Source: Neolecta irregularis DAH-3 (lineage: Eukaryota). Taken from it: DNA of 20,000 nt. The translations under genes and the position numbers were made by a program. The notes under the pieces were generated by a model that saw only the letters and a list, made by a program, of their open reading frames with translations, ran no database searches and was not told where the DNA came from. Below, piece by piece: positions 1,742 through 19,211 of this stretch (position 1 is its first letter; the number at the start of each line of letters is the position of its first letter). The DNA lies in contig LXFE01004217.1 of assembly GCA_001929475.1 (NCBI GenBank), forward strand, positions 49,048 to 69,047, in the 5' to 3' direction.

Positions 1742-4421
1742 ACACTGCGTCCATGTCCGCCTCCTCCTCGCAGTCCTCTTCAGCCCGCCGCGGCACCAAA
1801 GTCTCGCCCACAACCATACCCAGCGCCTCCAGGAGCACCGTGTCTTCTGCCGGCCCCGTCAGCACAGCCAAGTACATTTGCGTCGACAGCCCGCCCCGCA
1901 GCTGCAACGGCTCGTCTGTCCCGCGAGAAACAACAGTCTTGCTTACTAGCCCATGAATCACCTTGGAGATCCGGTTGAGGGCAGAGCGCTGGCCATCATC
2001 CACACCACCAGGAATAAACGACGCCCGTGACAGACTGTTGCCCTGTACTAACTGTAGCAACCGCCGAATCAGACTGTCAGTATTGAGCCATAACTCTGCA
2101 AGTCCGCTTTCCGGCGGCAGCAACTGCACCAGCACATCCAACGCAAGTGCTGCCAGCCCAACGAGAGGGAGCTGCTCCTCCCATATCGCCCGGATAGGCA
2201 TAGAAGGAGACTCCAGCAACGGCGATACTGCCATTGAAAACAGCCTGGTGTGCTGCAGCGGATTACTCGATAGAATCAAGGCCAGAATCTGCCGGTTCGG
2301 TACGTCTCGTGCAAGCAGTCTCGCCAGCACTTCGATCGCCGGGGGCAAATACGGATTGAATTCAGGAAAGTATTCAGGATAATGCAAATCTTCCAACGTA
2401 ATCGGTCTCGGCGAGCAAGGCGCAAAAATTAATATTAGGTCCAGGTAGGCTGCCAATGACTCCTTGTCATTCATTTTCATAGCATGCGAAATGTTTGCGA
2501 GAAACACAAGCGAATCCTTGGAAATTTCCAAGGCTATCTGAGATTTCCCAATGTAAAACTCGAGACTCGATGAACGTAAATAGTCGACCAGTTTTACAAA
2601 TATCCGCAGCGTTCTTGAACTCGTGGCAAGTATTTCCATATTGAAAGCAAAAAATGAAAGATTGCGCATTATCGTAGTAAGGGCCTCAAGCCGATCAAGA
2701 GCAACCCTCCTCCGAGTCTCTTTCAAAGTCTGAGCAGGCGGCGACAAATCCAGAATCTCTTGAGCTGCCATATCGAGAAAATCTTCATAATCGTAAGGTA
2801 TCCCGGATTCCGTCGTTGCTAATACAAAAGAAGCCAGAATTTCCATTTCAGACTCTATCACATCCAACAGTGCATCCAAAAGATCTCGGCATTCACTCAA
2901 AGGTATCGAACATCTTGGATCGCCCATGATTACCGACAACGAATCAATAGCTACACTAACTTCACCAAGCAGCCCGGATTGCAGACTCATCGTGAGCGCT
3001 TGAACATTGATACTCGCCAGCTCCATAATTCCATAAGGATGGTCTCGAACTCGTTCAAGCTCTGATGATAGACGAGCCATGGTTTCAATATCCAGGCCCC
3101 CATATGTCTGAGGAACATGTTTACGAGGTTTGTATTCTTTCGGAGGAGCAGGCTCATCCGGTTCATTCTCTAGTTTCTTTACTGATTCTAGTTCAACCGG
3201 GATTGATTGTGACGGGCTTCTGGAACCAGAGACTCCAGAACTTGGCGGCGGCGGCGATACAGGTTCTACTTTCATGGATTTTGGGTGGGCGTGATCGGAA
3301 GCAGTGGTAGGTTTTGGAGGTTGAGAGTCTCTGGGTGACCCGGCTGTTTGAATATTGGGTGATAGTGCACCCTGACTAGTGGACGTTGATTGTTGCAATC
3401 GATTTTGAGGAATAGATTGCATCTTGACTGCGTGTTGCCGCTGCATCATATGCTCTTCAAAAGGTCCGAGGTAGGTACTGAAGTAGGTCGAAAGAATCTC
3501 TCCATCAGACTCGGTGAAACCCATCTTTTGAGCGAATGTTGGCCATAAATTCTGAGCCGTTACGGACTTTGACCCTCCACTTCTTGAGACGGCAATAAAT
3601 AACTGGGGCAGATTGACGGCCTTGTTCCCTATAGAAGGCATATTGGTGATCGGAGTGCCTCGTTTGCTCATAAACTCCATCAGAGATCGCATGAAAGCAG
3701 CGTAGTCGTTTTTTGGGTTATGAATAGGCGGCGGCCTAGAATGCTGCATGGGCTGCTGTGGCTGTACATTGGAAATCTGCGGACGACTCATGTGTGGAGA
3801 ATGGTTGGTCTGCTGGGCGGTCAATTGATTGGGTGGCCTTGTGATCGAGTGAGGATGGTTTTGCGGTGACCGGGTGGCAGCTAGCCCCATACTGCTTCTA
3901 GGAAGGGCCATCGCCTGACCGGGAGGACTTTGTGAAGGTCGGCCTGAGTTGTGATTTGACTGAAACGGCGAATTCACGCGCCCCTGAGAGGGAAGATTTT
4001 GATATGCAGCGGCAGGGTTATAATGATGGAACTGAGGATTTATAAATTGTTGCTGGGGAGTTTGAATGGGAGCGCTGCTAATAGTTTGTGATTGCTGCTG
4101 CTGGGATGCCAGTTGTTGCACGTTTATGCTATTTAGCGTCAGTATCTTCCAGCGAATTTCTGTGCCGAATCCTTCGTCCACCATATCTAAACCAGTGTAT
4201 TTGTGTATAATGTCTTCTAGCCTGAAGATCATCCACTAAGGAAAGATATTCAACAGGATACGAAGGATGAACAAACGAAAGACGTACCCCTGAGGCGCGT
4301 AGTTTTGATCAAAGGTCTGAAATGGCATATTCCCCGGTTGCTGCTGTTGTTGGTTGACATCACGCTGGCGCTTGTACTGATTATAACCAGAATACATGTT
4401 GAGATAATCCTGTTGATCCAT
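1740..4421 (-). CDS. SWI1: SWI/SNF ARID-domain subunit (Swi1/Sol1/ARID1-like)
   Basis: Q/P-rich N-terminus, ARID domain (FMRSLMEFMSKRGTP...VNLPQLFIAVSRSGGSKSV...W...YLGPFE) and BAF250_C-like segment (ALTMSLQSGLLGEVSVAIDSL). First exon MDQQDYLN...APQG (4421-4288) is joined in frame by a 159-nt intron 4287-4129; the 5' structure is less certain. Confidence 0.88.
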
Positions 4422-7683: not shown

Positions 7684-9604
7684 ATGGCACTCTCGCTACT
7701 AAATGCAAAATCAGAATCATTGAGGCGGGATCAGGCGCTGCAGGTCAATATTGCAGCGGCATGTGGCCTCCAGAGCGTTCTTCGCAGCAATTTGGGCCCT
7801 TCAGGTATATTTCTACCCGCAACTACTGCTGATTGCATTACAGGAACCCTCAAAATGCAAGTGCGCCCGCCACTGCCGTATTGCTGATGTGTTTTCAGGC
7901 TTGTTGATGGTGCGGGTGCCATAAAACTGACCAAGGATGGAAAAGTACTGCTGGCTGAAATGGTGCGTCGCTGGCCACTGGCTTCCTTGCTGCTGCTGAT
8001 TGTGTTTTCACAGCAAATCACCAATCCAACGGCCCTCATGATTGCCAAGGCTGCCACCGCACAGGACGAGGTCGCAGGCGATGGCACTACCTCAGTCTGT
8101 CTTCTGGTTGGAGAGCTCCTCAGGCAAGCAGAGCGATATATTTCTGAAGGTCTGCATCCTCGTGTCGTCGTAGAAGGCTTTGACTTGGCCAAGAAAGAAG
8201 CACTCGATGTGAGCCGTTAAACTGTTGGTTCTGCTAATGCAAAGTTTCTTGACAAATTCAAAGTCGAAAAAGAAATAGATAGGGAATTACTCCTACAAGT
8301 TGCTCGCACGTCACTTTCAACAAAGATCAACAGTCGTCTCGCAGGGTCCTTAACTGCGGGCATTGTGGATGCCGTTTTGGCAGTACATGAGCCTCCTAAG
8401 CCCATTGATCTTCATATGGTTGAAATTATGAAGATGCAACACCGTGATGCAGCAGAGACACGTCTGATCAAAGGTCTATGCCTTGATCACGGTGCACGTC
8501 ACCCGGACATGCCAAAAAGAGTAGAGAATGCGTATATCCTCACTCTGAATGTATCGCTTGAATACGAAAAGAGTGAAGTCAATTCAGGCATCTACTATAG
8601 TACTGCTGGGCAGCGCGAGAAGCTCATTGAAAGCGAAAGACGTTTTGTTGATGACAAGCTCCGAAAAATTGTGGAATTAAAAAAACACGTTTGCGGAAAT
8701 GATTTAAAGAAAAATTTTGTGGTCATCAACCAGAAAGGTATCGACCCGTTGTCCTTGGATGTACTTCAGAAAAATGGAATCCTTGCCCTTCGACGAGCAA
8801 AGCGTAGAAATATGGAAAGGTATGACGAAATTAATCTCGTGAGCTTATGTTACAGACTTCAGCTAGTGTGCGGAGGTGTTGCTCAAAACAGTGTCGATGA
8901 CCTCACACCTGAGGTGCTCGGGTGGGCGGGGTTGGTTTACGAACAGACTCTTGGAGAAGAAAAGTACACTTTTGTTGAAGAAGTGAAGGATCCCAAATCA
9001 GTTACACTCTTAATCAAAGGTGCGACTCGAGATCCTAATTTTGCTGAAACGCAGGTCCTAACGCCCATACCATTACTCAGATACAAGAGGCGGTTCGTGA
9101 TGGTTGTTTCAGCTCCTTCCTTATTTACTGAGTCTTAGGTCTCCGTGCTGTTAAGAACGCTATTGAAGATAAATGCGTTGTTCCGGGGGCTGGAGCTTTT
9201 GAAATCGCATGTGCGGCTCACCTTTCCGGTGACTTCAAACGCAAGACCGCTAAAGGGCGAGCTAAGATGGGCGTCCAAGCGTTTGCCGATGCCCTTCTCA
9301 TTTTGCCCAAAACACTGGCTGCAAATGCTGGATTTGACACGCAGGAAGTCATTGTGGCTCTCCAGGACGAATGTGCCTCGGCTCACGTTGCGGGAGTCGA
9401 CCTTCGGACCGGAGAACCTATGGACCCAGCCGTTGAAGGCATTTGGGACAACTATCGTGTGAAACGTCATGCTCTGCACAGTTGCAGTGTTATTGCCTCC
9501 AATCTGTTGAGCGTAGACGAGATTATGAGGTTTGTGCCATACTTGTGGCCACTACTGACTGGTTCAGAGCAGGGCGTTCAAGTCTCAAAGAAGGAGGCCA
9601 CTAG
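7684..9604 (+). CDS. CCT6: Chaperonin CCT/TRiC zeta subunit
   Basis: [38 protein letters not shown]-terminal RAGRSSLK. Eight introns: 7805-7843, 7857-7898 (GC-AG), 7963-8013, 8209-8244, 8820-8855, 9020-9054, 9103-9138, 9530-9567. Confidence 0.97.
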
Positions 9605-16948: not shown

Positions 16949-19211
16949 TCAATTTATTTGCTGGTGTTCACAGAGCATTTTGTAGAGAGCGGATATACCT
17001 ATTCTCTGTGCTGGTAGCATTGAATACGAGAAGCTGTATAGCTTTGAGCGGTCTAGGAGAGGGACGCCCTCGCCGCTTAAAAGACCTTGAAGCATCTTGA
17101 ATGATAAATAGTGCTCCCGCAGTCGTGCGGCTAATTGAAAATATTGGTAAAAGATGATGTTGAGGGACAGGGGTATAGACTGAAAGTTAGCGCTAAAGTG
17201 TGCTGCCGACCTTTATGATAATGTATGACGTTGGAGTTTTGCTGTCTGGTTCTCCGGTTTCCGTGATCAGATCAAAACACACGCCGCCTGGAATTAGCGT
17301 TGAATAAATGGGTGCAACCTGGAAGTCTGTGAGGATCTTTGACTCGCAGCATCAGGGCAAAGAGGGGAAAGTAATTCAGGCAAGCGAGGATTGTTTCGAG
17401 GATAGCCTTTGCAATGATGATGAACAGTCGGGCAGATGCAAAAGTCGCATAGAATACAAAGACGGTGGGAAAAAGGAAAACAAGCAATGTGAATAAAATG
17501 GTGCCGAGGATGAGTTGATCAAGTTCGTAATCGCAAGAGTCAATTCTGTTGCGCAAGACGTTCTTTTTCTTTCCGCGGAAGAGATGGAACAGGGAAATGA
17601 GTATGTGAAGCTGCCAGTGGAAGATTCGCGACGCCGCAATATTGAAAGCGTAGATGTGGACAGTCAGGATTGATAGCAAATCCGAGCAGAGCGAGATTGA
17701 CATTGAGGCGCCCAAGAATCCGGATGCGCCGATGATGGTGATGATGAGCTGAAAGTATGGCTGGATCAGACGTAATGCGGCAGCCGTGAGCAAAATAGAG
17801 GAGGAGGCATACTGGACCATATCTCGATGAGCCATATGAAAAGGTCACCGAGAAATGCAGCAAGCTCATTGTTGAGCTTGAGGCCGGCAGGCCAGTCCAT
17901 GAGCCAGAGGATGGTTCTGTAGAGGCTTTCGATGGCATATCGCTAGAGTGAGCAGAGTGTGGCAGGCTACATACGCGAGAGTAGCGATCGAGCAGGAGGG
18001 CGAGTTGGAGGCCATTGTCGATGAGATAGGTACCGAGGGCTATGCCGATAATGATATCATTTGCGACCAGCCAGAGGCTGTTGTAGAAGCGAATGTAGTC
18101 TGAATGGTTTGTAGTGATGCTTGCCCAGTTGCGTTTTCGTTTCTGCAGGGTGATGTATTGGATGGGCCAGTAGCATGTCTGTTGAAGACGCATGTCGATC
18201 TGTTGTGCTTATGTAAGTATTAGAGGGGAGAAGGCGCACCGCTAGCGAGGATGTCCTTGAGGGCGGGAGATCCGGTTTCGACGAGGAGGAGACAAATTTC
18301 GGCAAACAGGCGTTGGGCCATAAAAGCATAGAGCGAGACCCAGAGCACCAAGGGTGCGAGGAAAAGGAGAATTTTTGCGGATAGGGAGAGGATAAAAGAC
18401 AAGAGAGATTTGAAGGTGTCATTTGCGGACTCGCGGACTCTCTCTGAGACGCTGCGGGCGCGTCGTCTGCGGGTAAAGGTATTGTATTCTCTGTCGAAGA
18501 AAGTTTGCAGTTCGTGGGCGCAATTAATCTATATATCAATCATATTAATGTGTATAATACCTGGTTGAGGGATGTATGCAAGCCGCTTGCTTGCGGGGGG
18601 ATATCCTTGATGTGGAGCAGTAATTTGAGGGCGAGATTGTGGGAGCTGTGGGGGAGGGTTGTGTGGTGGACGAGATTCAACGAGATTGGTTTGAGGGAGA
18701 TGTACTGCATTTTGTGAGGATTTGGCCGGTAGTATATGACGACTTGGACAGGATGGGGATGATTGAAGCGGGGGTAGGGGGAAGCGGGGTGTATGGTAGC
18801 ATGCAAGAGGNNNNNNNNNNTTGCATTTTGTGAGGATTTGGCCGGTAGTATATGACGACCTGGACAGGATGGGGATGATTGAAGCGGGGGTAGGGGGAAG
18901 CGGGGTGTATGGTAGCATGCAAGAGGGATTTTTGAGGGGGGCAGTTTAGAAAGCCGAGGATGTCTAGGGGGTTGTCGCCGCCGAGCTCGTAGATCTGGGC
19001 GAACGAGTGCTGGCAGGAGTTTCTGCCGTTTGCGATGAGGGAGGCGAGGTTTACAGACTTGCGGTCAGATAAGATTGGTGAAGGCAACCTCTGGGAGAAC
19101 GGTGACGACAAAGATGTGGGTGTGAGAGTTGCGCCAGCCGACCAAGACGCCGGCGTGAGAGTGGGAGCGGAGATCTGCGGGCCAAAAGACGCTCAGGGGG
19201 ACAGTGTCCAT
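16949..19211 (-). CDS. GPI1: GPI-GlcNAc transferase subunit Gpi1/PIG-Q
   Basis: N-terminal VFWP...GVLVGWRNS, then YIRFYNSLWLVANDIIIG, WLMDWPAGLKLNNEL, LFRGKKKNVLRNRIDS, DQLILGTILFTLL. Introns 19088-19058, 18560-18529, 18239-18208, 17974-17943, 17812-17781 (GT-TG), 17318-17288, 17210-17180. Frame is continuous once the gap duplication is collapsed. Confidence 0.93.
18706..18926. other. Assembly gap (N x10, 18811-18820) flanked by a 105-bp direct duplication
   Basis: 18706-18810 and 18822-18926 are identical except T18744/C18860. Confidence 0.95.

Follow-up and report, generated by a model that had tools for sequence, protein, structure and literature searches.

A GT-TG intron in the GPI1 gene of Neolecta irregularis and a Prp18 protein with a degenerate loop

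Can a spliceosomal intron end in TG instead of AG in an intact gene of a wild organism, and what would allow the spliceosome to accept such an end? The question is raised by a 20,000-nucleotide stretch of Neolecta irregularis DAH-3 (contig LXFE01004217.1 of assembly GCA_001929475.1, positions 49,048 to 69,047), referred to here as the window, in which all positions are numbered from the first letter. The first-pass annotation of the window proposed that positions 17781-17812 form an intron of GPI1 with a GT donor and a TG acceptor. We compared this proposal with assembled sequences, homologues and orthologous loci, and searched the genome for similar introns and for the splicing factors that would handle them.

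The GT-TG intron of GPI1

GPI1 (PIG-Q) lies on the minus strand at 16949-19211 and is modelled with seven introns; leaving out a scaffold duplication, it has 641 codons. The family assignment comes from Pfam PF05024 and from homologue matches, and the gene is single-copy, with one locus in the assembly. No near-identical Gpi1 protein was present among the best 120 matches of either homologue search. Within the gene, a 106-base repeat (18705-18810 and 18821-18926, 2 differences) flanks a gap of 10 N; this repeat is a scaffolding artefact that both lengthens and breaks the GPI1 gene model.

The intron in question, the fifth of the seven, is 32 nt long and in phase 1 (17781-17812, minus strand). 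It opens with the 5' splice site GTATGC (17807-17812), followed by a tract in which 14 of 15 positions are C or T (17792-17806) and which may serve as a pyrimidine tract. Next comes a branch-point-like motif, GCTCAC (17786-17791), with a putative branch A at 17787, position -7 of the intron. The acceptor is CTG (17781-17783), which keeps the pyrimidine at -3 and the G at -1 and replaces the A at -2; the first base after it (+1) is C. The consensus-like GT donor and the precise removal described below are features of a major (U2-type) intron, from which the terminal AG is missing. U12-type introns have an RTATCCTT donor and a TCCTTAAC branch site, and we rejected this class since neither the donor GTATGCCT nor the branch motif GCTCAC matches that consensus.

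In length the intron agrees with the other six of the gene (31-32 nt), and the neighbouring GT-AG intron (17943-17974, minus strand, 32 nt) shares both its branch motif and its -7 spacing; the lengths and the spacing had been noted at first pass. A length of 31-32 nt holds for GPI1, while AG-ending intron candidates from other parts of the genome range from 30 to 45 nt, with a peak at 34-36 nt. A putative branch A stands at -7 or -8 in all seven GPI1 introns, in branch motifs that are varied. The annotation had suggested that the 3' site is chosen by its distance from the branch point; the uniform spacing across the gene is consistent with this suggestion, for branch sites that are themselves putative.

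The annotation also stated that conserved Gpi1 sequence changes frame here and that a cut at TG, unlike cuts at the next AGs, restores it, and on these points our results agree. Each flank of the intron has an intact reading frame, which changes across 17812-17781, within conserved coding sequence. The upstream exon (17813-17942, minus strand) matches PF05024 positions 69-110, and the downstream exon (17319-17780, minus strand; 68-76 % identity to the best homologues) continues from position 114 (114-181), so that the two flanks are contiguous with the TG cut. The nearest downstream AG (17761-17762) lies 20 nt beyond the TG, is out of frame and is used by no contig; the second (17749-17750), for which the annotation had given the position of the A, is likewise out of frame. 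Ending the intron at 17761 (a 52-nt removal) shifts the frame and meets a stop 74 codons on, and ending it at 17749 (64 nt) does the same with a stop 70 codons on. Retention of 17781-17812 leads to a stop after 16 codons. Slid junctions and GC donors were considered as alternatives and none fits. RNA folding around the acceptor gave structure no stronger than that of shuffled sequences (z +1.14), which argues against a hairpin that draws a distant AG nearer. We know of no mechanism for U-to-A editing that could account for the TG.

The public data compared here consist of two runs of one study, X1 and X2, both in the form of assembled contigs and neither recorded as RNA; X2 is labelled 'DNA?' and has no library record. 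An X1 contig (depth 559) spans 17209-18237 and retains the intron; X1 skips nothing. Its sole other letter is at 17250, and it keeps the T of the acceptor at 17782, which speaks against the base error (CAG read as CTG) that had been offered as the alternative at first pass. An X2 contig (depth 307.7) skips exactly 17781-17812, with ends CA..AC on the plus strand and 130 letters on its shorter side. No letters fit both sides of this junction, which therefore has no positional ambiguity, and the proposed intron is thus the stretch that X2 removes. In total, five stretches are skipped in four X2 contigs, all at intron borders: 17781-17812 and four GT-AG introns. These four, the neighbouring intron 17943-17974 among them, belong to the other six introns of GPI1, whose remaining two lie one outside the compared stretch and one (17288-17318) not among the joints. 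Because its skips fall at intron borders only, X2 behaves as RNA, and we infer from its joints that it is transcript-like.

Depth in X2 gives a further view of the junction. The bin depths of 197.4 and 270.9 equal 307.7 x 43/67 and 307.7 x 59/67, values that match the spliced contig alone; assembly over the intron thus yielded neither a retained nor an AG-spliced form. Contigs omit rare variants, and a minor use of AG, or the share of each junction, is therefore invisible in X1 and X2. Taken together, these results make it very probable that the GPI1 intron is real and is spliced at TG.

Two observations on the same data concern the samples themselves. Other letters and alternative short contigs occur in the runs at 17250, 18208-18298, 18705 and 18744, places at which the samples are polymorphic or mixed. 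Between 17202 and 17335, the X2 bin depths are matched if 30 of the first 38 letters of one contig fall at or below 17268, unlike what would be expected of a simple junction; there may be another small skip near 17252-17278.

Ancestry of the intron and further TG candidates

Cutting at TG leaves eight residues between a conserved Trp and a conserved Pro, and 105 of 120 homologues have this same spacing. Three of the rest lack the anchors, and 12 have longer spacing; most of these 12 look like gene models in which an intron at the same place was taken for coding sequence. We also compared 80 metagenome loci that encode Gpi1 relatives, many of them redundant. The intron position proposed at first pass proved to be shared: 50 of the 80 fungal loci have an intron at the identical phase-1 position, 49 with GT-AG ends and one with GT-CG. 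Another 25 have no intron there (some may be transcripts), four could not be anchored and one has a 3-nt insertion. The orthologous introns are longer, at 44-76 nt. Since 49 of the 50 end in AG, the TG end is derived, and the intron is best read as old, with TG a lineage-specific change from AG. The exception, a 49-nt intron of an unrelated fungus (contig Ga0160429_1006613, L147:2435-2483), seems to end in CG; this is one contig and the letter could be a sequencing error.

How common are such ends in the Neolecta genome? Whole-genome motif counts found 418 AG ends against 136 in a reversed control, an excess carried by GTRYG donors, and 119 TG ends against 120. The counts thus show no genome-wide TG excess, by a method that is blind to a class below roughly 10 %, and TG ends would be a small minority. 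The branch motif signal across the genome is weak, with branch-to-end distances of about 7-10 nt. Tables of donor, branch and end (0.11, 0.31 and 0.71 Mb) show an AG peak at 8-10 nt and no interpretable BG (non-AG) signal.

Individual candidates were sought by homology in 901,960 nt of the genome, counting overlaps, by taking AG-less combinations of donor and branch motif and testing their flanks on Pfam. A codon-frame model failed to tell frames even at the known GPI1 introns and was kept as a loose filter. The strict screen sent 76 segments from 34 BG donors to Pfam and found contiguous flanks on both sides in GPI1 alone; four of its 14 AG controls were positive, and four matches that we inspected proved to be canonical introns or no intron. 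The loose screen tested 66 of 70 candidates, the omitted ones being GPI1, one already tested and two second acceptors of the same donor, and it placed both flanks in one family for five of the 66. Four loose-screen cases (Leo1, cullin, PRPP synthetase and alcohol dehydrogenase) are explained by GT-AG or GC-AG introns. Two apparent GC-AG introns were seen in one segment (L210, G000:C589:20001-30000), in a carboxyl transferase near 9268-9308 (plus strand) and in a zinc alcohol dehydrogenase near 2398-2431 (minus strand).

Two genes stand out as further candidates by homology. In NPR2, a putative GT-TG intron of 35 nt (G000:C2514:44362-44396, plus strand; L188:4362-4396) has the GCTCAC branch motif, like GPI1, and ends in ATG 8 nt from the putative branch A. 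With the TG cut its flanks adjoin at Pfam positions 226|227 and align in exact register to yeast Npr2; no canonical intron explains the case, and AG is missing from the 45 nt downstream of the TG. In RRP46, a putative GT-TG intron of 40 nt (G000:C891:25548-25587, minus strand; L219:5548-5587) ends in TTG at 9 nt. Its TG cut gives exact register with yeast Rrp46, for a gene in which in-frame AG cuts (+4 or -3 residues) also exist. The first-pass annotation had treated the GPI1 intron as a single case; the TG end stands, and the intron now seems to belong to a small class in the Neolecta genome, to judge from these homology-based candidates.

A rough rate can be derived from a sample of AG-ending candidates, in which eight of 40 were positive; for 464 candidates this corresponds to about 93 detectable AG introns. 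One or two new TG cases per about 93 AG introns is a rough 1 %, with an interval of about 0.03 % to 8 %. In Ganoderma lingzhi, 22 of about 92,000 introns are GT-TG (0.024 %) and TG, CG and GG ends together make up 0.09 % (PMC11590231); the Neolecta interval is so wide that a rate above this 0.09 % is not proven. The Ganoderma report, in the part concerned, gives no mechanism, and its GT-TG introns are no commoner than those with non-G ends (GT-AA, GT-CC).

The Prp18 loop and other splicing factors

Prp18 is encoded at one locus in the genome, and one of its exons is identical to a protein recorded for Neolecta irregularis. We examined the loop of its conserved region (yeast S187-I211; in Neolecta on the minus strand of G000:C702, L180:1400-1641) against the 144 of 149 homologues that cover it, leaving out five truncated ones. 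Fourteen loop positions are at least 85 % conserved. Neolecta Prp18 keeps seven of them, the lowest number among the 145 sequences; the others keep 8-14, and 128 keep 13 or 14. The lost residues, with the number of the 144 homologues that conserve each, are Trp (144), His (143), Arg (143), Val (137), Thr (134), Asn (129) and Val (129), and an Ala-His pair just past the loop is also lost. The Trp, His and Arg are all kept in 142 of the 144 homologues and never are fewer than two of them present; Neolecta keeps none, while the Prp18 proteins of Saitoella and Pneumocystis, its two best matches, keep all three.

The changes are concentrated in the loop. Outside it Neolecta Prp18 keeps 11 of 14 positions conserved to the same degree, and its overall consensus match (46 of 95, median 52.5) is ordinary. 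They affect plain exon sequence to either side of a single intron. Elsewhere in the protein, the position matching yeast R151 (helix 2) is Glu, as it is in 11 of 149 homologues.

By contrast, the Prp8 residue equal to yeast Q1594 is kept in a stretch nearly identical to that of human, Slu7 is present with an intact-looking zinc knuckle, and both Fyv6 and U6 are present. U2AF35 was indistinguishable among 24 CCCH matches. The U6 snRNA match (G000:C1963:269-417, minus strand) covers 149 nt against a model of 105 positions, which suggests an intron or insertion within the U6 gene. Partial extra matches to the U6-binding domain of Prp8 occur on two small contigs (G000:C4303:125-265 and G000:C2568:207-436) and probably are fragments, pseudogenes or contamination. 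Our literature search, thin in subscription journals and confined to main texts, found nothing on Neolecta together with Prp18. Among the papers listed on Neolecta introns or splice sites, titles and abstract openings mention nothing on TG ends.

How the TG end may be used

The explanation that we favour, with moderate confidence, is that this is a major-type intron whose ancestral AG became TG and whose excision still takes place mainly or solely at TG, its end being set by distance and the terminal G under relaxed proofreading. Its strong donor and its branch site would suffice for the intron to be recognised as a unit, with no AG involved. Once branching has taken place, geometry would dock the acceptor that lies 7 nt from the branch A. 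In the yeast post-catalytic structure the first and last G of the intron pair with each other, as do A(-2) and the branch A; Prp8 Q1594 reads the pyrimidine at -3, and the Prp18 loop supports positions -3 and -4 (10.1101/212811). By analogy, the last G of the GPI1 intron would still pair with the first, the -3 pyrimidine would fit an intact Prp8 pocket, and only the contact between A(-2) and the branch A would be lost. U at -2 causes a strong second-step defect in yeast (10.1101/212811); the loss could be tolerated here if second-step proofreading is relaxed in a lineage with a degenerate Prp18 loop.

Decay of the loop may thus be the reason why TG introns are tolerated. In yeast, loss of Prp18 activates CUG, AUG and UUG sites as well as sites 7 nt from the branch, and deletion of the loop favours non-consensus sites that deviate at -2 and -1 (Roy et al. 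2023, PMC10711555). A point against this reading is that Prp18 is reported to be missing altogether from Stentor and C. merolae (PMC9505925, PMC10711555), so that its loss is not unique, and the passages concerned mention no non-AG class in them. More tentatively, and with a little less than even confidence, we hypothesize that the spliceosome of Neolecta is naturally relaxed, with ends set by position and terminal G, and that about one in 100 of its introns is obligatorily non-AG, in conserved single-copy genes.

One explanation that needs no relaxed proofreading, and which we consider less likely though the main competitor, is that the short branch-to-end geometry alone lets an ordinary spliceosome use TG, the Prp18 loop having decayed later, as a consequence, since it is not needed over such distances. 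Prp18 and Slu7 are dispensable at short branch-to-3' distances in yeast (PMC10711555, 10.1101/212811), and the GPI1 branch A lies at -7 or -8; the rare GT-TG introns in the curated annotation of Ganoderma and the lack of a TG excess in our motif counts also fit this explanation. However, the sequence fidelity conferred by Prp18 has been read as independent of distance (PMC10711555). Slu7, equally dispensable, looks intact, and Prp18 is conserved outside its loop, so that the loss is concentrated there. The finding of three TG cases within some 0.9 Mb likewise weighs against geometry alone.

The remaining alternatives are all improbable, to differing degrees. In a tandem of the human style, the first step would rely on the AG 20 nt downstream to define the intron, the TG would be selected only at the second step, and a minor frameshifted AG isoform would be degraded. 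That AG does lie within the 28-nt limit of human TG sites, which are never constitutive (PMC2374985), and contigs hide rare isoforms; yet it is out of frame and used by no contig, and NPR2 has no AG in the 45 nt after its TG, which leaves the tandem reading improbable. We think it still less probable that a base error or allele difference is involved and that the true or expressed allele has CAG. The assembly may have been made from X1, splicing hides the intron allele carried by the X2 sample, and the sample is polymorphic nearby (17250, 18705, 18744). Against this, X1 shows no other letter at 17782 at depth 559, even though it reports variants elsewhere, GPI1 is single-copy and intact, and there are other introns that appear to require TG. 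Least probable of all is that the joined sequence of X2 is DNA, from a processed copy or an intron-less allele, and that the genomic gene is frameshifted or dead. The label 'DNA?' would allow it, but five separate introns, of which four are GT-AG, are missing from four X2 contigs and all are retained in X1, the assembly has one GPI1 locus, and the frame is intact to either side of the intron.

The closest parallel to the favoured reading, relaxed proofreading at a TG that replaced AG, is found in yeast prp18 deletion and loop mutants, whose BG sites resemble the Neolecta sites in that the terminal G is kept, A(-2) is lost, the branch lies less than 10 nt away and the Prp18 loop is altered (PMC10711555). 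Their validated BG sites include CUG, AUG and UUG, and in Neolecta the GPI1 intron and the NPR2 and RRP46 candidates end in CTG, ATG and TTG at 7, 8 and 9 nt. In contrast, the yeast sites are aberrant mutant alternatives beside an annotated YAG, whereas the GPI1 TG is the only in-frame end and belongs to a wild organism; and Neolecta Prp18 is present, with a substituted loop. The GPI1 site therefore works like a BG site of a prp18 mutant and yet is not a member of that class, as it has no competing YAG and Prp18 is present.

Human TG acceptors offer a second comparison. In U2-type introns 36 cases were described, all alternatives to a nearby AG and judged unable to be constitutive, and AG>TG mutants were never spliced at TG (Szafranski et al. 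2007, PMC2374985). GPI1 shares with these sites the GT-TG ends, the -3 pyrimidine and an AG within 28 nt. It differs in that human TG sites prefer a purine at +1, where GPI1 has C, and stand beside a used AG, whereas in GPI1 the TG took the place of an ancestral AG, the downstream AG is out of frame, and the assembled junction is at TG alone. Among other systems, fission yeast has GT-TG among novel, probably aberrant junctions (10.1101/045922), and the term GT-TG is absent from the accessible text of a cross-kingdom intron survey (10.1101/616565). The Ganoderma frequencies stand beside the Neolecta estimate of about 1 % with its wide interval. A 3' end held near the branch site, as in Neolecta, is known from Yarrowia, Debaryomyces, Trichomonas and Giardia; those genomes are intron-poor, with a strong branch consensus and a terminal AG, whereas Neolecta is intron-rich, with tiny introns and loose branch motifs (Irimia and Roy 2008, PMC2483917).

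TG acceptors as such are already known; what is new here is a TG that replaces an ancestral AG in an intact gene, together with a degenerate Prp18 loop. A TG that acts as the assembled junction of an intact single-copy gene runs against the view, based on human sites, that TG cannot be constitutive. Gene prediction programs that require an AG will give wrong models for genes of this kind. If decay of the Prp18 loop is the reason, the AG rule would be enforced in part by one short protein loop and could be relaxed in nature, and the questions of why AG is so invariant and of what proofreads the A at -2 would become testable. Neolecta would then be the wild equivalent of the yeast loop-deletion mutant.
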